A stretch of DNA of 64,000 nucleotides from the NCBI GenBank assembly GCA_016192845.1, contig JACPTI010000030.1:1281-65280 (forward strand). The letters are read 5' to 3'. Below the pieces are notes generated by a model that did not search any database, was not told the DNA's origin, and saw nothing but the letters and a program-made list of their open reading frames with translations. Below are positions 2-10,920 of the stretch, piece by piece; position 1 is the stretch's first letter; every line of letters begins with the position of its first letter. Both the position numbers and the translations under genes were made by a program. Source of the stretch: Acidobacteriota bacterium (GTDB lineage: Bacteria; Acidobacteriota; Vicinamibacteria; Vicinamibacterales; UBA2999).

Positions 2-571
2 GTCGTCGGCAACGAGATCCCGTATCAGCCGTGGGCGCTCGAGCGGAAGCAGCAGAACTACGCGCAGCGCACGGCGCTCGACCCGGTGGCCAGGTGCTAC
101 CTCCCCGGCATCCCGCGGCTGATGTACATACCGTTCCCGTTCCAAATCGTGCAGACGCCGAACGAGATCGCGATGCTGTTCGAGTTCGTGCATGCGGTGC
201 GGTTCGTCTTCATGAGCGGCGCGCATCCGCCGGGGCCGATCGACTGGTGGATGGGCGACTCCCGCGGCCGCTGGGAGGGTGACACGCTCGTCGTCGACGC
301 CGTGCACTTCAACGACCGGACGTGGTTCGACAACGCCGGCAACTTCCACAGCGAGGCGCTGCACCTGGTCGAGCGCTACACGATGCTCGGGCCGGATCAC
401 ATCCAGTACGACGTGCGGATCGAGGACCCGAAGGTGTTCACGCGGCCCTGGGACATGAGCCTCGTCCTGTACCGCCGCAAGGAGCGGAACGCGCAGCTCT
501 ACGACTACGAGTGCTACGCGTTCGACTACGAAAAGTACTATCCGTATCCGCAATTGAGGAGTCCGCAATGA
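2..571 (+). CDS. secreted conserved hypothetical protein, paralog copy 1 (5' end outside window)
   Basis: Frame 2 is open from nt 2 (VVGNEIPYQPWALERKQQNY...) to TGA 569-571. Shares motifs PYQPWA, GxPR, GDxRGRWEGDTLVVD and FTRPW with CDS 568-1395 and 10060-10920. G/C-rich third codon positions. Confidence 0.7.
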   Translation, partial: VVGNEIPYQPWALERKQQNYAQRTALDPVARCYLPGIPRLMYIPFPFQIVQTPNEIAMLFEFVHAVRFVFMSGAHPPGPIDWWMGDSRGRWEGDTLVVDAVHFNDRTWFDNAGNFHSEALHLVERYTMLGPDHIQYDVRIEDPKVFTRPWDMSLVLYRRKERNAQLYDYECYAFDYEKYYPYPQLRSPQ

Positions 572-1395
572 GCACGCGACGGCTGATCGGGGCTCTCGGG
601 AGTCTGCTGTTTCTGTGGGTGTCTCCGCCCGTGGCGGCGCAGGAGGCGGGCCCGAGGCCGCTCGAGCGGCTGCCGGACGGGCAGCCGAACGTGCAGGGCG
701 TCTGGGGGCCGGTCAATCCAGGCTCGCTCTCGCTCACGAATCCGGTGCCGCAGCAGGCCGACTTCGATACGACGATCAAGCCGCTGCCGAGCCGGATCAT
801 CGATCCGCCGGACGGCAGGGTGCCGTATCAGCCCTGGGCCGCCGCGCTCCAGAAGGAGCAGAACCACTATTATGCGTATCCCATACGGCCCGAGCACATC
901 GACACGCAGCACCGCTGCATGCTCTCCGGCGTGCCGCGGCTCTTCACGATCGTCCCGGCCCTCAGAATCATCCAGTCGCGCGGCCTGATCGTCTTCCTCT
1001 GGGACACCTATACGGCGTACCGGGTGATTCCGCTCGACAACCGTCCGCACGTGGCGTCGAACGTCAAGCTGTACATGGGCGACGGCCGCGGCCGCTGGGA
1101 CGGGAACACGCTGACGATTGACACGCGCGGCGTGAAGGGGCACCGGCTCACCTACATCGGCGACTTCTACAGCGACAACGCGACGATCCTGGAGCGCCTC
1201 ACCTGGACCGATGCCAACACGTTCACCTACGAGGCGACGATCACCGATCCCGCCGTCTTCACGCGGCCGTGGACGATGCGCCTCGTCCAGCGGCGGCGGC
1301 CGAACGAGGAGATGTGGGAGGGTGCGTGCTACGAGGGGATGGCGGATCCGGACCAGTTCCTGCTGAAGAGCGCCCCGCCCCCGCCGACACGGTAG
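568..1395 (+). CDS. secreted conserved hypothetical protein, paralog copy 2
   Basis: ATG 568 overlaps the upstream stop (ATGA), with GAGGAG a few nt upstream. Signal-peptide-like MSTRRLIGALGSLLFLWVSPPVAAQ. Motifs DGRVPYQPWA, GVPR, GDGRGRWDGNTL and FTRPWTM are shared with the other two copies. Confidence 0.8.
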   Translation: MSTRRLIGALGSLLFLWVSPPVAAQEAGPRPLERLPDGQPNVQGVWGPVNPGSLSLTNPVPQQADFDTTIKPLPSRIIDPPDGRVPYQPWAAALQKEQNHYYAYPIRPEHIDTQHRCMLSGVPRLFTIVPALRIIQSRGLIVFLWDTYTAYRVIPLDNRPHVASNVKLYMGDGRGRWDGNTLTIDTRGVKGHRLTYIGDFYSDNATILERLTWTDANTFTYEATITDPAVFTRPWTMRLVQRRRPNEEMWEGACYEGMADPDQFLLKSAPPPPTR

Positions 1396-1758: not shown

Positions 1759-3036
1759 TTGTCGAATGATGCTCCAACCTTCATTGCGTTCGAGGACGAC
1801 ACCGAGCTTAGTTACGATCGTGTCATGTTTACGCTCGTAAAGCATGTTCGCTGGGAGCTCCCGTTCCCATTACGACTTCCGCCACAGGCATTCCTCGGCT
1901 GGGAGCCCCTGCATCGCGTGGCCGCAGTGTGCCTCATTCCCGGTGTCGGTGCGCTTCAGTGGAAACGCCAATGCAGTTTTCTTCAGAGAGCCGACGTGTT
2001 TGTCGATCCCGGGCCTGAACCCTCTGACGACGAGTTTCCCTCTCACAACTACCGCTTGGCATCCCTGCTCGCTCGAAACGGCCGTGAAGTGCTGACTCTT
2101 GAACTCACGGGGGGCCGTGGTGGTGGGTTCGAAGAGGCGCGACCGCACAGCACGGCGAACGTGTTCCTCGTCTTGACATCGCAGGACAGCACTAACGATA
2201 CAGATCTCGTTAACAGGGCGGCCCAGGCGATCAACAATTTCATCACGCTTGTTGCGTTCATGACGCTCGACGGCATGAGCCGACCAATGAACGGCGATCT
2301 TGACAGCTACTACACGGTCATCAGCACCGCGCGCGTGCCGGAGGACCTCGGTTGCGGAACGGCAGAAGAGGTTCTTCTCGGCCTTGACCGTCTCACCTTC
2401 AGCTCAATTGTTGGAGAGGGCCGTTCTCACAAGGTCGGGATGAACTCGTTCGAAGATCTGATGCCGGGAGCGGCCATCGATCGGCCGCCGCTCTTGCCGC
2501 AATTCGTTGATCTAGTCAGAGACGAGCAGCGCTTCGAGCTGTGGCATCAGTTGTTTTGGTCATCGCTCAGACGATTGAAGCGCCGGGAATATGCTCTCGC
2601 CATCCTCGATGCGGAGTCCGCTTTCGAGGTGTGCGTGGCCCTTACTCTCCGGGACGCTCTTCAGCGGCAGGGATTGACTGCTGAGGCTGCGGACGCTGCG
2701 CTTGCCGCCGATCTGGGTCGTCTTCAGGATCGGCTCGTGCGCCTGGATAGAATCGCGCAAGCCGAAGGTGCCACTGAACGCTTCATCGGCAGCCAGGCCG
2801 AGCGGAACTGGCGCCACGAACTCTATGACGTACGCCACGATGTGGTTCATCACGGTATTCGCGAGTTGACATTCGACGTCTCAAAGGCCGGTATCTCTCG
2901 TGGATTGCAGGCGGTCGAGCGACTGCTCACGCTCACGCCAACATTTCGGCGAAACTTCCTGTGGACTCAAGGCGCAACGACGCTGGCGCACCTTCGGGAG
3001 AGCGCTGGTCGTGTGTCTCGCTTGTTCGAATTGTGA
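1759..3036 (+). CDS. hypothetical protein with C-terminal HEPN-like domain (Rx4H motif)
   Basis: 425-aa ORF (TTG 1759; alternative ATG 1825). C-terminal helical region ...NWRHELYDVRHDVVHHG... carries R-x4-H at nt 2833-2850. No signal peptide. Lower GC than the backbone. Confidence 0.6.
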   Translation: MSNDAPTFIAFEDDTELSYDRVMFTLVKHVRWELPFPLRLPPQAFLGWEPLHRVAAVCLIPGVGALQWKRQCSFLQRADVFVDPGPEPSDDEFPSHNYRLASLLARNGREVLTLELTGGRGGGFEEARPHSTANVFLVLTSQDSTNDTDLVNRAAQAINNFITLVAFMTLDGMSRPMNGDLDSYYTVISTARVPEDLGCGTAEEVLLGLDRLTFSSIVGEGRSHKVGMNSFEDLMPGAAIDRPPLLPQFVDLVRDEQRFELWHQLFWSSLRRLKRREYALAILDAESAFEVCVALTLRDALQRQGLTAEAADAALAADLGRLQDRLVRLDRIAQAEGATERFIGSQAERNWRHELYDVRHDVVHHGIRELTFDVSKAGISRGLQAVERLLTLTPTFRRNFLWTQGATTLAHLRESAGRVSRLFEL

Positions 3037-3440: not shown

Positions 3441-5777
3441 GTGTTGATCCAGTACGAAGCATGGCCTACGCTGTTCGACAATTCATACATTGTCGCAGGA
3501 GCCGGCGACCGCATGTACGAACTACACAACCTTGGTTGGAACGCCTTCCAACAACTTTGCCTTACGATTGTCAGGGAAATCCTGGGCCAGACCGTCGAGT
3601 CGTTTCTCGATTCCAATGATGGCGGCAGGGACGGCGCGTTCGCGGGCCAATGGAAGACGATCGGTGCCGAGAGCTTCACCGGGCGCTTCGTCATCCAGTG
3701 CAAGTTCACAGCCAGAATCAACTCCACCCTCCGGCTTGCCCATCTGTCCGACGAAGTCGCCAAGGCCAGACGCCTGGTGGAGCAAGGTCGCTGTGACGGC
3801 TACGTCCTTCTGACAAACGCCAAGGTATCGGGAAAGAAGGCAGAACAGATCGAGGATCTCTTCACAGCCGCCGGCGTCAAGCACATCATCGTCCATGGAC
3901 TGAGCTGGATCTGCGATCAGATTCGCGAGAACAAGCGTCTTCGGATGCTGGTGCCGAGGGTTTACGGCTTGGGCGATCTCAGCCAAATTCTCGACGAGCG
4001 CGCGTATACGCAGGCCCGCGCGGTTCTCGCGTCGCTTCGCGAAGAACTCGCAAAGACCGTCGTTACCGAGGCCTACAGGAGGGCCGCTGCGGCGCTGGAC
4101 CAGCACGGATTCGTACTCCTGATCGGTGAACCCGCTGCAGGAAAGACCACCATTGCGTCGCTTTTGTCGATGGCGGCCATCGACCAGTGGAATGCGTCTC
4201 TTTTGAAGCTCGACGCGCCGGGCAAGGTCATGGAGCACTGGAATCCCCACGAACCTTCCCAGTTCTTCTGGCTCGACGACGCCTTCGGCGTCGCGCAGTA
4301 CGAGGCCTTCCTAGTTCACGGGTGGAACCACATTCTCCCGCAGTTGCCAACGATGCTCAGGACAGGCGCCAAGGTCGTGATGACGTCGCGCGACTATATC
4401 TACAACAGCGCGCGCAAGGACCTAAAGGAAGGGGCGTTCCCTCTGATGAAGGAGAGCCGGGTTGTCATCGACGTGCAGGACCTGACGGCAGAGGAGAGAC
4501 GACAGATCCTCTACAACCATCTCAAGCTCGGGAAGCAGCCGAAGAGTTTTCGGGCGGACATCAAGCCACACCTTGAAGCGGTCGCATTGCATCGGCGGTT
4601 CATTCCGGAGACGGCAAGGCGCTTGGCCGACCCGCTCTTCACGAAGGGGCTGTACATTGACGACTACTACCTGGGACAGTTCGTGGAGAAGCGTGAACAA
4701 CTCCTCCAGGAGGTCCTGCAGGGGATCGACGACGACAGCAAGGCCGCCCTTGCCCTCGTCTACATGAGGAACGACCGGCTCGAGAGCCCGATCCAGCTCC
4801 AGCCTTCAGAAGAGCAGGCGATCGCGCGTCTGCGCAGCACGCTCGGCGGCTGCGTCGCGGCACTTGAGGCGCTCAAGGGCAGCCTCGTGCAGCACTTCTA
4901 CGACAACGGCGAATCCGTCTGGCGTTTCAAGCACCCGACGATCGGCGACGCATACGCCTCGATCCTCGTCCGGAATCCAGAACTCTTGGGCATTTACGTC
5001 CAGGGCACCGCGCCCGAGAAGCTGGTGGAGCAAGTCACCTGCGGCGACGTCGGGATTGAACAGGCGGTCATCATTCCGAAGGCGTTGTATCCGCTGGTGC
5101 TCAGCCGCCTCCGCGAGTTCGCCACGACGGCGTATAAGGATCCCTGGCTCGCCCGTTGGTCGGCGCGGAGCGGGCTTCAGGGCTTCTTGAGGTGGCGCTG
5201 CTCGAAAGAATTCTTGTCACTGTACCTCGCCAACCATCCAGACCTCTTGGACAAGGTGTCGCAGCCCGGTCTCATGCTCGACTCAGTGCCTGAAGTCGGC
5301 CTCGCGGTCCGCCTCCACGAATTGGGCTTGCTGCCGGAGGGCCACTGCAGGAAGTTCGTCGCCGCTGTCAGTAACTACGCCTTGGAAGGCCAGGATCTGT
5401 ACGCGCTGGACAACCTGGGCATCCGGAGTGTGTTTGAAGATCACGAGTTCGGCGAGTTCCTGCTAAAGGTCCGCACCGAATTGGTGCCCCGGCTAGACCA
5501 CATCCGCCGCGAATGGCAGAGCAACTATCCGTCTGATGACAGGCCTGAAAGCTACATGCAGCCCCTGCTCGACTCGTTCGAAGCGCTCAAAGGTCACTTC
5601 GTGGACGACCAGGAATCAATGAAGATCGTCGAGCGGGAGGCCGGACGCGCGGCTGAATGGATTCATGAGCATATGCCCGACGACTCCGACGAGAAGCCCC
5701 GCCGCAAGCTCGGGAAAGTGACCGCGGCCGATGCGCCTGGTGGCGAACGGAGCATCTTCGACGACGTCGACTTGTGA
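3441..5777 (+). CDS. Mrr-like (PD-(D/E)xK) nuclease domain fused to P-loop/STAND-like NTPase with alpha-helical C-terminal region
   Basis: 778-aa ORF (GTG 3441; alternative ATG 3513). The N-terminus DSNDGGRDGAF...GRFVIQCKF...YVLLTNAKVS (nt 3618-3704) fits the restriction-endonuclease D...(Q/E)xK pattern. Walker A is LLIGEPAAGKTT (4125-4148) and Walker B is FFWLDDAFG (4263-4289). It is followed by about 450 aa of helical, repeat-like sequence. Confidence 0.7.
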   Translation: MLIQYEAWPTLFDNSYIVAGAGDRMYELHNLGWNAFQQLCLTIVREILGQTVESFLDSNDGGRDGAFAGQWKTIGAESFTGRFVIQCKFTARINSTLRLAHLSDEVAKARRLVEQGRCDGYVLLTNAKVSGKKAEQIEDLFTAAGVKHIIVHGLSWICDQIRENKRLRMLVPRVYGLGDLSQILDERAYTQARAVLASLREELAKTVVTEAYRRAAAALDQHGFVLLIGEPAAGKTTIASLLSMAAIDQWNASLLKLDAPGKVMEHWNPHEPSQFFWLDDAFGVAQYEAFLVHGWNHILPQLPTMLRTGAKVVMTSRDYIYNSARKDLKEGAFPLMKESRVVIDVQDLTAEERRQILYNHLKLGKQPKSFRADIKPHLEAVALHRRFIPETARRLADPLFTKGLYIDDYYLGQFVEKREQLLQEVLQGIDDDSKAALALVYMRNDRLESPIQLQPSEEQAIARLRSTLGGCVAALEALKGSLVQHFYDNGESVWRFKHPTIGDAYASILVRNPELLGIYVQGTAPEKLVEQVTCGDVGIEQAVIIPKALYPLVLSRLREFATTAYKDPWLARWSARSGLQGFLRWRCSKEFLSLYLANHPDLLDKVSQPGLMLDSVPEVGLAVRLHELGLLPEGHCRKFVAAVSNYALEGQDLYALDNLGIRSVFEDHEFGEFLLKVRTELVPRLDHIRREWQSNYPSDDRPESYMQPLLDSFEALKGHFVDDQESMKIVEREAGRAAEWIHEHMPDDSDEKPRRKLGKVTAADAPGGERSIFDDVDL

Positions 5778-6159: not shown

Positions 6160-6378
6160 TCAACGAGCCTGGTAAATCGCTGGTCGGTATCGAGGTGATG
6201 GAACGGGCTTCCCGGCCGCCCGCGCGGCATCCAACCAGAGTTGCTTGGCGCGTTCCACCTCGCGCAATGCCTGTTCGGGAGTCTGTCCGAAGGCCGAACA
6301 GGCATCTAGATCCGGAATGTCAGCGACGTAGGCGGCGTCTTCCTCGCTGTAGAAAATGTTGATGTGGTAGTCGCTCAT
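6160..6378 (-). CDS. hicB: HicB-family antitoxin
   Basis: 72 aa: MSDYHINIFYSEEDAAYVADIPDLDACSAFGQTPEQALREVERAKQLWLD..., a typical HicB/UPF0150 N-terminal fold sequence. Overlaps hicA by 4 nt. Confidence 0.8.
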   Translation of the reverse strand: MSDYHINIFYSEEDAAYVADIPDLDACSAFGQTPEQALREVERAKQLWLDAARAAGKPVPSPRYRPAIYQAR

Positions 6379-6632
6379 GGCGCGTCCCCTAACCTCAGAT
6401 TGTAGCGCTCGACGAGCCGAAGCACCTGCCGAATCTGATACGGCTTCGCGTCGCCGCCGACGTCCTGAACGTTGACGAGTTCTGGAATCTGCCGGTGCCC
6501 GTAGATTCGATGGCTTCCGGAGGTTCTGATGATCGAGAAGCCAAACGCCTCTACCAAGCGGCAGAAGTCGCTGAAGCTCACGTTCTGTAGGTCGCCCCGC
6601 GAGATTCGGGCTAGCAGCTTGCGCGGTTGCAT
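6375..6632 (-). CDS. hicA: HicA-family mRNA interferase toxin
   Basis: 85 aa containing F..L...GF....R.SGSHRIY, the hallmark of HicA/YcfA. Lies upstream of and is translationally coupled to hicB. Confidence 0.8.
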   Translation of the reverse strand: MQPRKLLARISRGDLQNVSFSDFCRLVEAFGFSIIRTSGSHRIYGHRQIPELVNVQDVGGDAKPYQIRQVLRLVERYNLRLGDAP

Positions 6633-6644
6633 TGTTCGCGTTGG

Positions 6645-6678
6645 ACTCCGCGCAGTATAGCGACTCTCACTCCGCGCA
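6645..6678 (-). promoter_or_regulatory. hicAB promoter/operator candidate: 10-nt direct repeat flanking a TATACT -10
   Basis: ACTCCGCGCA occurs at 6645-6654 and 6669-6678 (plus strand). On the minus strand this reads TGCGCGGAGT-N14(containing TATACT)-TGCGCGGAGT, and the promoter-proximal copy ends 12 nt upstream of the hicA ATG. Confidence 0.4.
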
Positions 6679-6785
6679 CCTTCGCGACCGATAGGTAATG
6701 ATCAGTCGCCAAGGGTTGACCGACCTTCGCGCCATAAAGCCCGAAGAGGCGACAGCAGACGTAGGTAACTGGCAGCGCCGATCGA

Positions 6786-7556
6786 TCACCGCAGGAGCGC
6801 CCAGAGCCCCAGGCCGGCGGCCGTCGGATCGGCGAGCCAGTCGGGCGGTGTCAGCCAGACGAACGCCAGAATCGCGATCACCCACGCGTCGTAGGGGATC
6901 GTCGTCCGCTCGTCCCGCCAGAAGAACGCGCGCCAGAACGCCCGCGCGGCGATGGTCGCGCCGGCCGGCATCGGCCGGCCGTTGAGCGCCAGATACGTGT
7001 GGTGGATCCGGTTGATCACGGTCACGACCGACAGGACGAGGATGACCCACAGGACGCCGGCCATCCGGTCGGTGAAGGCGCCGATCATGAAGAGGACGAT
7101 GCGCTCCGGCCGCTCCATGAAGCCCACCTTGCACTTCTCGATGAGCGACTCGGCGCGCGCCCGGGTGTAGCTCGTCATAATCGAAAACATCATGGTGAGT
7201 GCCGCCACCATCACGTAGTCGGTGCGCCGGAGGTCGGCGTAGAGGTAGATTAGGCCGAGGAACAGGGCGATATCGGAGAACCGGTCGAGCGTCGAGTCCC
7301 AGAAGGCGCCGAAGCGCGAGACCGTGTTGGTCAGGTGCGCGACCTTGCCGTCGATGAAGTCGAAGATGTTGGCGACGATCATCATCACGCCCGCCAGGAG
7401 GAACCGGTCGACGCCGAGCGCGCACGCGGCCGCCACATTCACCAGCACGCCGATGAGCGTGAGCACGTTGGGGTGGATGCCGAGCGCCACGCTGGCGGCG
7501 ATGATGGCGCGCAGCGGGAACATGCAGGCGGTTCCCACCAAGCCGGTAAATGTCAT
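6786..7556 (-). CDS. CDP-alcohol phosphatidyltransferase family protein
   Basis: 256-aa multi-TM protein. DFIDGKVAHLTNTVSRFGAFWDSTLDRFSD matches the DG-x2-A(R/H)-x8-G-x3-D-x3-D family motif. Confidence 0.85.
   Translation of the reverse strand: MTFTGLVGTACMFPLRAIIAASVALGIHPNVLTLIGVLVNVAAACALGVDRFLLAGVMMIVANIFDFIDGKVAHLTNTVSRFGAFWDSTLDRFSDIALFLGLIYLYADLRRTDYVMVAALTMMFSIMTSYTRARAESLIEKCKVGFMERPERIVLFMIGAFTDRMAGVLWVILVLSVVTVINRIHHTYLALNGRPMPAGATIAARAFWRAFFWRDERTTIPYDAWVIAILAFVWLTPPDWLADPTAAGLGLWALLR
6788..6869. repeat. 82-bp direct repeat, right island boundary (attR-like); functional 3' end of the phosphatidyltransferase gene
   Basis: See 1434-1515. This copy is contiguous with the rest of CDS 6786-7556. 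Confidence 0.85.
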
Positions 7557-7560
7557 GGAC

Positions 7561-7569
7561 TGTTATAAT
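7561..7569. promoter_or_regulatory. AT-rich TGTTATAAT box in a divergent intergenic region
   Basis: On the plus strand it is an extended -10 (TGnTATAAT) about 120 nt upstream of uvrC. On the minus strand it reads TATAAC ending 7 nt before the ATG at 7556, which has no SD sequence. That placement fits a leaderless transcript of the phosphatidyltransferase gene. Confidence 0.4.
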
Positions 7570-7691
7570 TAGAGGTTTTCGTCGCCGGGATCCGCGCCCG
7601 AGCGGGGCCCCCAACCCGGGCCCCCATCGCGCCCCGCGCGATGGGGTGGCGTCGCGCGGACTGTGCGCGTTGGGGTGCTCTAGAGTAGCCC

Positions 7692-9551
7692 ATGGCGATC
7701 CACGACCTCAAGGAGCAGATTACGCGGCTGCCGGAGCAGCCCGGCGTGTATCTGTGGCGCAACGCCGCCGGCGACACGATTTACGTCGGCAAGGCGCGCA
7801 CGCTCAGGGATCGTGTGCGCAGCTACCTCGGGGCGGCCGGCCTCAGCCCGCGGCACGACGCGCTGCTCGAGGAGATCGCCTCGCTCGAGGTAATCGTCAC
7901 CGACTCGGTCATGGAGGCGCTCGCGCTCGAGAACAACCTGATCAAGCAGCGCCGGCCGAAGTACAACATCCTGCTCCGCGACGACAAGAACTACCCGTAC
8001 CTGCAGCTGACCACGAGCGAGCCGTTTCCGCGCATCCTCGTGGCGCGCCGCGTGGAGAAGGGGGGCGATTTCTACGCCGGCCCGTTCCTCCCCGCGAAGC
8101 TCGCGCGCCGGACCATGGGGCTGGCGCACCGGCTGTTCGGGATCCGGTCGTGCAACGAGGTGATCACCGGGCAGCGCGGGCGGCCCTGCCTCGAGTACGA
8201 CATCAAGCGCTGCATCGCGCCGTGCGTCGCGGAGATCTGCGGCCGGGAGCGCTACGGCGCGGCGATCGAGAACGCGAAGCTGCTCCTCGAGGGGCGCACC
8301 GACGAGCTGGCCGACACGCTGCAGGCGCGCATGCAGGAGGCGGCCAGCGCCCAGCGCTACGAGGAGGCGGCGCAGCTCCGCGACGCGCTCCGCACGGTCC
8401 AGACGCTCCGCGATCGGGAGCAGAAGGTCGCAACGCCGGGGCTCGGCGACCGCGACGTGTTCGGCCTCAAGGTCGGCCCGAGCGGCGGCGCCATCCAGGT
8501 CTTCGCGATGCGCGGCGGCCGCGTCGTCGAGCGCGTGGAGCTGGCGGTGGAGCCGGGGCTTGCCCGGCGAGACGCGGAGGTGTTGCAGGCGGCGCTGCAG
8601 CAGTTCTACGAGGACCGCGCAGCGCCCACCGAGATCAACCTGCCGCTGGAGATCGAGGACGCGGAGGCGCTGGAGGCGTGGCTGTCCGGACGCGCGGGCC
8701 GGCGCGCGCGCGTGACCGTGCCGCAGCGGGGCGACAAACGGGCCCTCGTCGACCTGGCGACGCGCAATGCCGAGCTCTCGTACCGCACCCGCTTCAACGA
8801 GATCACCGCCGCCCACTTCGAGGGGCTCGAAACGCTGCGCGCCACGCTCGGCCTCCCGGCGATGCCGCGGCGCATCGAGTGCTTCGACATCTCGACGATT
8901 CAGGGGAGCGAGACCGTGGCGTCGATGGTCGTCTGCGAAGACGGCCGGATGAAGAAGGCGGAGTACCGGAAGTTCCGGATCAAAGGGCTTCGGGCTTCGG
9001 GCTTCGGGCTTCGGACACCCAAAGCCCACAGCCCAGAGCCTAAAGCCCTTCCGGATGACTTTGCGGCCATGCGCGAAGTCGTCCAGCGGCGCTGCCGCAA
9101 GGTGATGGAGGAGGGCGGGCCGTTTCCGGATCTGATCCTGATCGACGGCGGCAAGGGGCAGGTGACCGCCGCCTATGAGGCGCTCGAGTCGATTGGTCTC
9201 GGCACCCTGGTGGCGGTCGGGATTGCCAAGCGGGAGGAGCTGCTCTTCACGCGCGACCGGTCGGAGCCCATCGCGCTCGCCGAGAACGACCCGGCGCTGC
9301 TGCTCCTCGAGCGCATCCGAAACGAGGCGCACCGGTTTGCTGTGACGTTCCACCGCAAGGCGCGCTCGATGCGTGACCTCCGCTCCGAGCTCGATGCCGT
9401 CCCCGGCATCGGCCCGCGCCGGCGCCGCGCGCTTCTCACCGCGTTTGGGAGCCTGGCCGGCGTCCGCCGCGCCACTCGCGAGGAGCTTGGCGCCGTGATC
9501 GGGCCGAAGGCAGCGGCCGCCGTTATCGATTACTTCGCGAAGTCTGCCTGA
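7692..9551 (+). CDS. uvrC: excinuclease ABC subunit C
   Basis: N-terminal GIY-YIG motif (PGVYLWRNAAGDTIYVGKARTLRDRVRSY), UVR domain, ECFDISTIQG nuclease motif and C-terminal (HhH)2 (LDAVPGIGPRRRRALLTAFGS). Confidence 0.95.
   Translation: MAIHDLKEQITRLPEQPGVYLWRNAAGDTIYVGKARTLRDRVRSYLGAAGLSPRHDALLEEIASLEVIVTDSVMEALALENNLIKQRRPKYNILLRDDKNYPYLQLTTSEPFPRILVARRVEKGGDFYAGPFLPAKLARRTMGLAHRLFGIRSCNEVITGQRGRPCLEYDIKRCIAPCVAEICGRERYGAAIENAKLLLEGRTDELADTLQARMQEAASAQRYEEAAQLRDALRTVQTLRDREQKVATPGLGDRDVFGLKVGPSGGAIQVFAMRGGRVVERVELAVEPGLARRDAEVLQAALQQFYEDRAAPTEINLPLEIEDAEALEAWLSGRAGRRARVTVPQRGDKRALVDLATRNAELSYRTRFNEITAAHFEGLETLRATLGLPAMPRRIECFDISTIQGSETVASMVVCEDGRMKKAEYRKFRIKGLRASGFGLRTPKAHSPEPKALPDDFAAMREVVQRRCRKVMEEGGPFPDLILIDGGKGQVTAAYEALESIGLGTLVAVGIAKREELLFTRDRSEPIALAENDPALLLLERIRNEAHRFAVTFHRKARSMRDLRSELDAVPGIGPRRRRALLTAFGSLAGVRRATREELGAVIGPKAAAAVIDYFAKSA
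8985..9048. repeat. in-frame heptamer-array palindrome inside uvrC
   Basis: GGGCTTC x4 in tandem (8985-9012), then GG-ACA, then the inverted array CCCAAAG CCCACAG CCCAGAG CCTAAAG CCC. It is translated as GLRASGFGLRTPKAHSPEPKAL. Confidence 0.8.
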
Positions 9552-9633
9552 CGTGCGAAATTTCACGCCCATTGGCGCTTCCGTGCCCTGGGGCTGGAAC
9601 GGTCATTGCTGGGGTGGCGCGTGGAGGCGGTGT

Positions 9634-10032
9634 ATGAACGTGCATCTTTTTCGCCTCGTGGCCTCCGGCGCGCTGATGCTGGCGGCCTCACCCGGCCTCG
9701 CCCATCACTACTTCCCGCGCGAATCCGATACGCCGACCACCGTGACCGGGACAGTCGTCCGATTCGACATGGTGAATCCGCATGCGCGCCTGCTGCTGGA
9801 AGTCCGAGACAGCAGCGGGACAGCCACCATCTGGGACATCGAGCTTGGAAGCATCCAGGTCCTGGTGGCCCGGGGATGGAAGCGGGACGCGGTGCGTGCA
9901 GGGGATGTCGTGACGGCCGACGTCATCATGTGGAAAGGCCGAGCGAACGCCGGATCCGCGCGCACGGTGCAATTGCCGGACGGCCGGAAGGTGTTCGCCG
10001 GGTCGCACGCAGGCGATTCCGCCCGGCGGTAA
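9634..10032 (+). CDS. small secreted protein, mature N-terminus HH (paralog of 12102-12524)
   Basis: ATG 9634 preceded by GGAGG. Signal peptide ...SPGLA|HHYF. Shares LAHH.F, NPH, RGW.R and DGRK.FAG with the paralog. Confidence 0.7.
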   Translation: MNVHLFRLVASGALMLAASPGLAHHYFPRESDTPTTVTGTVVRFDMVNPHARLLLEVRDSSGTATIWDIELGSIQVLVARGWKRDAVRAGDVVTADVIMWKGRANAGSARTVQLPDGRKVFAGSHAGDSARR

Positions 10033-10059: not shown

Positions 10060-10920
10060 CTAGTGGGGGCCCTTGCCCGTGACGCCGGGATAGATGCGGT
10101 AGCCGAGGTCGATGAGAGGCTGCGTGTTGCGCTCGCCTTCGTGGCACGCCTCCTCGAGCAGCTCGAGATCCCGTTCCGCCATGCGCCTGAGCGGAAACGC
10201 CATCGTCCAGGGACGCGTGTAGACGCCTGGGTCCTCGATCGTGGCCTGCACGTGGATCGTGTCAGGGTCGATGCGGGTGAACCGGGCGACGATGTGGGCC
10301 CGTTCCGAATAGAAGTTTCCGGCCTGGTCGAACCACGGCTTCGCGTTGAGGTTCGTCACGTCGACGACCAGCGTCGAGCCTTCCCAGTGCCCGCGCAGGT
10401 CTCCCTGCCACAGGCCTACATTCCCGCCGATGTGCGGACGCGCGTCGGTTGGAATGATCCAGTAGGTATGCGCCCGCTCGAAGAGCACGACGACATATCC
10501 GCGCGTCTGCAGAATCTGGATGGTGGTCGGCGTGTAGAGCGAGCGTGGAACGCCGGACGGGAAACACGGCACGTTGGGATCGATGTACCGTGCCTTGTTC
10601 TCGTCGCGCTGCGCCGCCGCCCAGCGTTGGTACGGAATCCTGCCGTCCGGCGGGTCGACGATGAGGCTCGGCCCGCCGGCGTCGTCGAGCGTCTTGGGAT
10701 GAGCCTCGATGCTCTCGGTCGCGTAGGTCGGGCCGCGCCAGAACCCCTGCAGGCTGGCTTTGCCGTCCGGTGTTCGCGGCGGATCGAACACCGCGCCCCG
10801 TGCCACCGCGCAGGGATGGAACAGTGCGGGGTCGGCCGGACAACGCTCCTGTGCCGAGGTCAGCGGCGCCGCCAGTCCGGTGACGGCAGCCGCTGCCACG
10901 ACACAGGCCGACAGCCTCAC
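10060..10920 (-). CDS. secreted conserved hypothetical protein, paralog copy 3
   Basis: 286 aa. The GTG start overlaps the upstream stop (GTGA). Signal peptide MRLSACVVAAAAVTGLAAPLTSAQ. Motifs DGRIPYQRWA, GVPR, GDLRGHWEGSTLVVD and YTRPWTM. Confidence 0.8.
   Translation of the reverse strand: MRLSACVVAAAAVTGLAAPLTSAQERCPADPALFHPCAVARGAVFDPPRTPDGKASLQGFWRGPTYATESIEAHPKTLDDAGGPSLIVDPPDGRIPYQRWAAAQRDENKARYIDPNVPCFPSGVPRSLYTPTTIQILQTRGYVVVLFERAHTYWIIPTDARPHIGGNVGLWQGDLRGHWEGSTLVVDVTNLNAKPWFDQAGNFYSERAHIVARFTRIDPDTIHVQATIEDPGVYTRPWTMAFPLRRMAERDLELLEEACHEGERNTQPLIDLGYRIYPGVTGKGPH

Follow-up and report, generated by a model that had tools for sequence, protein, structure and literature searches.

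The 64,000-nt stretch analyzed here (the window), from an Acidobacteriota bacterium of the order Vicinamibacterales, carries near its left end a gene for a protein with a beta-rich N-terminal domain and a helical C-terminal half. The C-terminal ~165 residues are very probably a HEPN-type helical bundle with an intact catalytic signature, as judged from the structural model, and the protein is assigned as a HEPN RNase with high confidence. Comparison with homologs suggests that the gene represents a HEPN family of its own and needs no partner gene. The preferred interpretation, that of a single-polypeptide, auto-inhibited solo HEPN effector in conflict or defence, is considered reasonably but far from strongly probable.

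The earlier note on this DNA, made from the letters alone, had described a 425-aa protein at 1759-3036. The open reading frame (ORF) list and its translation do contain an uninterrupted plus-strand ORF at these positions, which starts with TTG and comprises 425 codons, but the product is probably shorter. The public gene call for this gene (P0001) is 403 aa long, homologs align solely from residue 24 of the 425-aa ORF, and their own N-termini coincide with an ATG at 1825. These observations favor the ATG at 1825 over the TTG at 1759 as the real start, which would leave the initial 22 codons after the TTG untranslated and give a product of 403 aa. All residue numbers below refer to the 403-aa product unless the 425-aa ORF is named; R359 and H364 of that ORF become R337 and H342. 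The features of the gene are as follows.

1825-3036, plus strand: gene for the two-domain protein (P0001, probably 403 aa), from the ORF list, the public call, the homolog alignments and the ATG at 1825
1825-2490, plus strand: N-terminal beta-rich domain, residues 1-222, from the AlphaFold domain model and invariant columns, with no PDB or Pfam relative
2539-2928, plus strand: HEPN-like helical core, residues ~239-368, from the secondary structure of the model, Foldseek and sub-threshold Pfam HEPN matches
2833-2850, plus strand: putative R-x4-H catalytic motif RHDVVH, R337 to H342, from its position and its invariance in alignments
2929-3036, plus strand: C-terminal tail, residues 369-403, from the alignment of long-form proteins

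Scans around the gene found no tRNA and no Rfam RNA. Counts of promoter-like sites (2, against a shuffle mean of 0.7) and terminator-like sites (4, against 4.0) in the same region were uninformative.

The R-x4-H motif and the helical fold

The string ERNWRHELYDVRHDVVHHG, from which the earlier note had argued for a HEPN domain, was present as described, and its R-x4-H (RHDVVH) occupies residues 359-364 of the 425-aa ORF, exactly nt 2833-2850. The protein contains 41 arginines and 11 histidines, and shuffled versions of it held an average of 1.05 R-x4-H motifs, with at least one in 68% of the shuffles; another R-x4-H, which is unconserved, occurs at residue 258 of the 425-aa ORF. Because shuffles so commonly yield the motif, its presence alone is no evidence, and its significance rests on conservation.

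Three alignments were used for this purpose: one of 18 close relatives, one of 30 sequences, and one of 20 sequences that included a short subfamily. R337 and H342, whose conservation among homologs the earlier note had named as a test of its proposal, were invariant in all three. Among the 18 close relatives G344 and R346 were invariant as well, within a block that reads LY-x-L-R-N-R-I-V-H-x-G-x-R. The 30-sequence alignment extended down to 22% identity and had a mean column identity of 44%, with 14 invariant columns, including W329, L333, R337, H342 and G344, which lie on one helix, and E268, D308 and F320. When 15 short-form proteins (~317 aa, Chloroflexota) were added, A266, E268, F320, W329, R337, H342 and N137 were still invariant. 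The family consensus around the motif is W-x3-LY-x-L-R-N-x-I-V-H-x-G. The position after R337 is asparagine in this consensus (LRNxIVH) and histidine in the window protein (RHDVVH) and some of its relatives.

Conservation was also found on either side of the motif. E268, in the DAxSAFE motif of the helix at 256-281, taken as helix 2, was invariant in all alignments, though the usual E-x3-[KR] context is absent, and D308, in the helix at 300-313, was invariant in the long form. The C-terminal tail, ending ...H-x5-AGR-L-x-R-L-F-E, was conserved too: W380, L387, G395 and R399 were invariant, and H389, F401 and E402 nearly so. The tail was confined to the long form and absent from the short Chloroflexota form.

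The full-length AlphaFold2 model, built with the family alignment, had a predicted local distance difference test score (pLDDT) of 85 and a predicted template modeling score (pTM) of 0.81, with residues 230-380 mostly above 90. In this model helices span residues 224-402, and the HEPN core at ~239-368 comprises helices at 239-252 and 256-281 (which carries E268), an insert at 286-313 made of two helices (286-294 and 300-313, the latter with D308), and helices at 324-343 and 350-368. R337 and H342 sit at the C-terminal end of the helix at 324-343, which is followed by the helix at 350-368. A Foldseek search of the PDB with the full model returned three credible matches, all HEPN proteins: 2hsb with a probability of 0.98 (template modeling (TM) score 0.64 over the target), 2q00 with 0.93 (0.64), and 4nqf with 0.60. 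The probability of the remaining matches was at most 0.15. The C-terminal part, which the earlier note had described as helical and had proposed to check for a HEPN fold by structure prediction, is therefore modeled as a HEPN-like helical bundle whose sole credible PDB matches are HEPN proteins.

Sequence profiles pointed in the same direction at lower levels of significance. Searches of Pfam, NCBIfam and PADLOC with the window protein gave nothing above threshold. Among its relatives, the only recurring Pfam families were HEPN families, namely HEPN_RiboL-PSP in 18 of 25 relatives (best E-value 3.7e-5), HEPN_Apea in 3 of 25, HEPN in 2 of 25 and HepT-like in 1 of 25, and in the set rich in short-form proteins 9 of 20 matched HEPN_Swt1. 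The six per-member bit scores seen, for HEPN_RiboL-PSP or HEPN_Swt1, were 12.3-15.8, compared with cutoffs of 28.4 and 27.5 bits. Since none of the Pfam HEPN matches was shown to reach its curated cutoff and neither Pfam, NCBIfam nor PADLOC holds a matching family, these proteins appear to be a new HEPN family, not described in any of the three libraries. Searches of PDB chain sequences with the full protein and with domain profiles found nothing significant; matches to designed helical repeats and EF-G were rejected as low complexity or chance.

Active HEPN domains carry an R-x4-6-H at the end of core helix 3, usually with N, D or H after the arginine, and a conserved acidic residue in helix 2 (PMC3710099). 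The position of the motif at a helix end and the asparagine or histidine after the arginine fit the first two of these rules, and the rule on the acidic residue is fitted in part.

The N-terminal domain and the distribution of the family

Modeled alone with AlphaFold from 25 sequences, the N-terminal domain had a pLDDT of 92 and a pTM of 0.85. It consists of long antiparallel strands (residues 2-12, 33-47, 76-81, 88-95, 101-118, 163-170 and 198-204) and a 23-residue helix at 125-147. Its invariant residues are P13, G42, G100 and G101 in a GGF-x-E loop, and R131 and N137 in the helix, and this pattern of conservation suggests that they mark a functional site.

No known family or fold was matched by this domain. 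Foldseek against the PDB gave nothing significant (best E-value 0.1, probability at most 0.13, TM score at most 0.27), no Pfam family recurred over the domain among the relatives, and a fold search of the BFVD viral structures with the full model likewise gave nothing significant. The statement of the earlier note that the N-terminal part has no recognizable motif was borne out by these results, and its broader proposal, that an N-terminal domain of unfamiliar type is followed by a HEPN RNase domain at the C-terminus, is supported by them together with the fold and the conservation of the motif, the RNase activity and the defence role being putative.

Many of the Foldseek entries for the N-terminal domain were Cas7, Csm3 and Csa2 proteins. 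All were at noise level (probability at most 0.13, TM score at most 0.27), and a relationship to RAMP proteins is not claimed. A search of PDB sequences with the N-domain profile gave class III nucleotide cyclases (6sir and 5oyh) at an E-value of ~0.1 over residues 102-207 (nt 2128-2445). Nucleotide cyclases and Cas7/Csm3/Csa2 share RRM/ferredoxin-like cores, and the weak matches of the domain to them would represent either chance or very remote kinship. The domain may have a new fold, or it may be an RNA-binding module very remotely akin to RRM/RAMP proteins, as the noise-level Cas7/Csm3 and weak cyclase matches hint.

An N-domain-only profile search of 5.8 billion proteins retrieved 34 sequences, all of which had the same ~400-aa architecture or were fragments. 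This indicates that the N-terminal domain serves this HEPN domain exclusively and is not a sensor module shared among effectors. By analogy with other HEPN effectors it is proposed to be a regulatory or sensor module.

The family is small. There were 18 clusters at 90% identity in a search of 5.8 billion clustered proteins, and 73 clusters, ~25 of them full length, came out of an exhaustive HMMER search over 1.84 billion representatives. No Pfam domain was precomputed for any member. The members came from metagenomes and metagenome-assembled genomes assigned to Syntrophaceae, Betaproteobacteria, Ignavibacteria and Chloroflexota, a patchy distribution over distant phyla.

The short form, of ~317 aa, was found in Chloroflexota/Dehalococcoidia (L019-L028 and L060-L072; for example, L023 9614-10567). 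It retains the (E/D)IPYPL and H-x-A-I-N-R-L-L-x-V-Y-R motifs and the HEPN core, and has neither the GGF-x-E hairpin nor the AGRLxRLFE tail. Directly after the short-form gene in three Dehalococcoidia genomes (L023, L024 and L027) is a gene for a 912-aa DNA methyltransferase. One copy of the family gene, at 6001-6459 of L073, a 6.99-Mb contig, is truncated to 152 aa, which leaves just the N-terminal domain; it is flanked by two ISAZ013-type transposase genes and is probably a decaying pseudogene. The same may apply to several other matches, 190-250 aa in length, that lie on long contigs (P0120, P0122 and P0081).

Neighboring genes and the island

The gene at 3441-5777, co-oriented with the HEPN gene, had been labeled a nuclease-NTPase in the earlier note, and this label was upheld: its product matched nSTAND3 in Pfam (E-value 1.5e-40) and, at its N-terminus, Mrr_cat (2.6e-4, barely over the Pfam cutoff). 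It also matched the PADLOC candidate PDC-S73 (3.3e-29), in which the S presumably stands for a single-gene candidate, and probably acts independently, as an Avs-like defence protein encoded by a single gene.

To determine whether the HEPN gene has a conserved partner, 73 loci were collected, which formed 51 groups after dereplication at 85% identity; 28 of these groups (27 besides that of the window) had at least 2.7 kb of downstream DNA. Homologs of the NTPase were found beside the HEPN gene only in contigs L014 and L015, which are from the same organism as the window (100% and 99.9% protein identity). Across the 50 other groups, the retrieved DNA contained no NTPase homolog at tblastn E-values up to 0.01. 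When all flanking ORFs were compared with each other, the only family present in more than 4 of the 51 groups was the HEPN gene itself with its antisense shadows. The 117 neighbor ORFs within 3 kb included 104 different Pfam families, none of which occurred more than twice, and there was no nucleotidyltransferase among the recurring ones. The lack of co-occurrence of the NTPase and the absence of a conserved neighbor indicate that the HEPN gene acts alone; on these genome comparisons, it is a solo unit predicted to need no partner gene. The earlier note had allowed that the protein acts alone or together with the NTPase, and only the former stood.

The surroundings of the relatives elsewhere were mixed. 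At one locus the family gene lies beside an Mrr gene and a gene for a 1,368-aa Eco57I-type enzyme (type IIG restriction-modification, RM), with a PIN toxin farther along the contig; at another it has a Phd/ParE pair, accompanied by a Y1-transposase fragment, on one side and a convergent ParA-like gene on the other; and another relative lies in an integrase-bearing island. Toxin-type neighbors across the loci included PIN, HicA, ParE/Phd and HipA. A PADLOC search of the 117 neighbor ORFs identified type IIG RM (2), LmuA/Lamassu (2), a type I methyltransferase, a DruE-like helicase, SduA/Shedu, a type IV restriction enzyme and PDC-M48B. In raw counts, defence-type neighbors were present in a minority of the loci. 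Taken together, the mixed surroundings suggest a mobile conflict gene.

Two further neighbors, both large and uncharacterized, were recorded, each beside one member of the family, and neither recurred at other loci. Directly downstream of the family gene in L004 (2455-3627) is a gene for a 390-aa protein without a Pfam match, which was present in all four contigs of that member (L004-L007, from four related samples). In L008 a divergent gene at 6312-9824, in the integrase-bearing island, encodes a 1,170-aa AAA/STAND-like ATPase.

In the window, the HEPN gene is part of a 5.35-kb segment bounded by direct repeats. The remaining features of this segment are as follows.

1434-1515, no strand assigned: left copy of an 82-nt direct repeat, a displaced duplicate of the final 27 codons and stop of a CDP-alcohol phosphatidyltransferase gene
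3441-5777, plus strand: gene for the Mrr-like nuclease plus nSTAND3 NTPase (778 aa), from Pfam and PADLOC, probably separate from the system of the HEPN gene
6160-6632, minus strand: HicA toxin (6375-6632; Pfam HicA_toxin, E-value 1.3e-9) and HicB antitoxin (6160-6378; HicB_lk_antitox, 1.1e-6)
6788-6869, no strand assigned: right-hand repeat copy (82 nt), which forms the functional 3' end of the CDP-alcohol phosphatidyltransferase gene at 6786-7556 on the minus strand

The two repeat copies (family D1) are 94% identical and 5354 nt apart, and translation of both showed that they are coding. GC content falls from ~0.66-0.70 outside the segment to 0.60 inside it. Because both copies encode the 3' end of the CDP-alcohol phosphatidyltransferase gene, the segment was inserted into that 3' end and regenerated the gene; the repeat looks like an att-type duplication from site-specific insertion. 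The cargo of the island consists of the HEPN gene, the Mrr-nSTAND3 NTPase gene and the HicA/HicB pair, the genes of which overlap by 4 nt at the right end. Neither an integrase nor a tRNA was found in the island, so it may be a remnant or be mobilized in trans.

Around the island are three paralogous genes without a Pfam match, two in tandem upstream (86-571 and 322-1395, plus strand) and one downstream (10060-10920, minus strand). They share MGD-x-RGRWEG-x-TL and VFTRPW-x-M blocks (direct repeats D2-D4), and their products are possibly secreted.

Proposed function and comparison with known systems

If the protein is the auto-inhibited effector proposed above, two copies would dimerize through their HEPN domains, and the paired R-x4-H motifs would form a composite, metal-independent RNase site in which H342 would act as general base and R337 would stabilize the transition state, leaving RNA products with 2',3'-cyclic phosphates (as expected from PMC3710099). 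The likeliest substrates would be tRNAs, cut in the anticodon loop, or else abundant RNA species of the cell or the phage. On the model of ApeA and DARNA, two single-protein HEPN systems compared below, the beta-rich N-terminal domain would keep the nuclease off until it recognizes an infection or stress cue, which could be a phage protein, a ligand or a nucleic acid; activation would then lead to cleavage of RNA, probably tRNA, the arrest of translation and the abortion of phage replication. On the same analogy, we infer a role in defence or abortive infection. The gene would move between distant phyla on its own, and would have reached the window on the 5.35-kb insertion together with two unrelated conflict modules. 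A more specific version, in which the family is an unrecognized single-gene immune or abortive-infection system whose beta-rich domain senses infection through a trigger unlike those of ApeA, DARNA, PrrC and RloC, is put forward tentatively, as a possibility that may well prove wrong.

Several observations weigh against the assignment or the proposed role. The Foldseek E-values of the HEPN matches were weak (0.3-1.1) despite the high probabilities, the one Pfam match of the window protein was to HEPN_Swt1 at an E-value of 0.11 over the motif region, and no Pfam HEPN model was shown to reach its curated cutoff. Every source name of the members was "hypothetical protein". Searches of 50,697 phage records, 72,556 plasmids and the IMG/VR viral contigs gave no homolog; this is neutral for defence, and it does not tie the family to mobile elements. 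Many modular defence sensors occur with different effectors, whereas this N-terminal domain always keeps the same one. Finally, many of the loci lie amid housekeeping genes (pyruvate kinase, RsgA, PGK, RuvC and MutS).

The last of these points invites the explanation that the protein is a housekeeping or stress RNA-processing RNase, comparable to the Las1 or Swt1-type HEPN enzymes, and the occurrence of several loci amid core genes (pyruvate kinase, RsgA, DNA polymerase III alpha and MutS), the weak Pfam matches that include Swt1-like HEPN, and the lack of an antitoxin-like partner would all agree with it. RNA-processing enzymes, however, usually keep a conserved genomic context and a lineage-wide presence. 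This family is extremely rare and patchy over unrelated phyla, its neighbors are never conserved, truncated copies occur among insertion sequence elements, and the copy in the window lies in a recent low-GC insertion, all of which make a housekeeping role unlikely. A different explanation begins from the insertion, which has no integrase: the gene could be a selfish toxin, an addiction module or a toxin-antitoxin (TA) module that stabilizes the island, with the HEPN toxin neutralized by the N-terminal domain or by an unrecognized small RNA or peptide. HEPN toxins are common in TA systems (HepT/MNT, PMC3710099), and other TA genes are nearby: HicAB in the window, ParE/Phd at the P0108 locus, and PIN and HicA at further loci. 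But no MNT gene or any other ORF is conserved next to it, the region yielded no Rfam RNA, and the fixed fusion to a 220-aa folded domain is more like the sensor-effector immune proteins; this explanation, which overlaps the preferred one in that both involve an auto-inhibited toxic RNase, is regarded as improbable.

The two other explanations concern the parts of the proposal individually. The best fold matches, 2hsb and 2q00, are HEPN-T proteins, which often have no canonical histidine, and on that precedent the HEPN-like domain could be a non-catalytic binding or scaffolding module whose conserved residues bind a ligand or protein. Non-catalytic HEPN domains lose the R-x4-6H (PMC3710099), whereas here the arginine, the histidine and the upstream acidic residue are invariant and a polar residue is kept after the arginine, so a non-catalytic domain is very unlikely. 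It would take still more to make one two-gene system of the HEPN protein and the Mrr-nSTAND3 NTPase, with one sensing and activating the other. Their genes are co-oriented, 404 nt apart within the same 5.35-kb insertion, and the pair is retained in L014 and L015, but these contigs belong to the organism of the window, the NTPase is in none of the 50 other groups within the retrieved DNA, it matches what is presumably a single-gene candidate (PDC-S73), and a gap of 404 nt is long for an operon. Such a system is therefore considered extremely improbable.

HEPN RNases are effectors of many immune and toxin systems, among them Cas13, Csm6, ApeA, DARNA, PrrC and HepT, and an open question for these enzymes is how each is kept silent and then switched on. 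The family described here offers a compact, seemingly partner-free case (403 aa, or 317 aa in Chloroflexota) in which the putative regulatory domain is confidently modeled yet resembles nothing solved. This N-terminal domain, with its high-confidence model and no structural relative, is the most intriguing element of the protein. If the family is a defence system, it would provide a new type of sensor, and uncultured bacteria of soil and sediment would have supplied a small RNase scaffold that looks programmable. Otherwise, ~70 clusters of "hypothetical protein" can still be labeled as a probable new HEPN family whose catalytic residues are defined, and the NTPase treated separately.

ApeA is reportedly a single-protein HEPN anti-phage system, said to come from the work of Gao et al. 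in 2020. It forms HEPN dimers that cleave tRNA anticodons in a ligand-gated manner and cause abortive infection (bioRxiv 10.64898/2026.01.26.701840). Both ApeA and the protein studied here are known or predicted to be single polypeptides that carry a HEPN RNase at the C-terminus, preceded by non-catalytic regions, and to need no partner gene, and the catalytic helices read alike (eW..YRtRNnIVHsG in 9hxj, eW..LYrlRNdIVHeG in the family), at a non-significant E-value of 1.3. In contrast, the PADLOC library gave 0 matches to the window protein at E-values up to 1, the 3 of 25 relatives that matched HEPN_Apea did so at 0.049 or worse, and ApeA was not among the top Foldseek matches of the window model. 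The N-terminal and Mid domains of ApeA are predominantly alpha-helical and form the ligand pocket with the HEPN domain, whereas residues 1-205 here are mainly long beta-strands. The HEPN domain of ApeA is also split by insertions, at residues 335-583 of a protein of ~580 aa or more, compared with 403 aa here.

DARNA is a HEPN tRNase activated by single-stranded DNA bound to the viral single-stranded-DNA-binding protein (bioRxiv 10.64898/2026.02.22.705581). It too is a single-protein HEPN effector, in which the non-catalytic domain senses the trigger and the active sites form across HEPN dimers. Its HEPN domain, however, is N-terminal, so that the domain order is reversed, and its sensor is alpha-helical and Pds5-like, with no sequence or fold match here.

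The nearest sequence family of the C-terminal domain is HEPN_RiboL-PSP (PF18735), the Ribo L-PSP-HEPN family, which is distantly related to AbiD/AbiF (Anantharaman et al. 2013, PMC3710099), and the matches of the relatives to it cover the R-x4-H region. The window protein itself did not match it at E-values up to 1, however, and members scored 15.8, 13.4 and 12.3 against the cutoff of 28.4 bits. The contexts known for that family, fusion to an endoRNase L-PSP domain or an operon with ParB (PMC3710099), were not seen here: the protein has no L-PSP domain, no neighbor is conserved, and the convergent gene noted at one locus is ParA-like and not ParB. In structure, the best matches to the C-terminal bundle were the HEPN-T/HepT proteins of HEPN-MNT pairs (2hsb, 2q00, 4nqf and 7ae8). 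These are stand-alone proteins of ~120-145 aa accompanied by an MNT antitoxin gene, while here a 220-aa domain is attached to the bundle and neither an MNT gene nor another partner is conserved. Proteins of the 2hsb type are, moreover, usually without the canonical histidine (PMC3710099), which is invariant here.

These comparisons indicate that the description "ApeA- or Abi-like" in the earlier note holds as a functional analogy and fails as family membership; the window protein matched no ApeA profile. HEPN domains joined to uncharacterized N-terminal domains are a recurrent theme. What is new is the HEPN family and its N-terminal domain; the general kind of HEPN effector to which they belong is already known.

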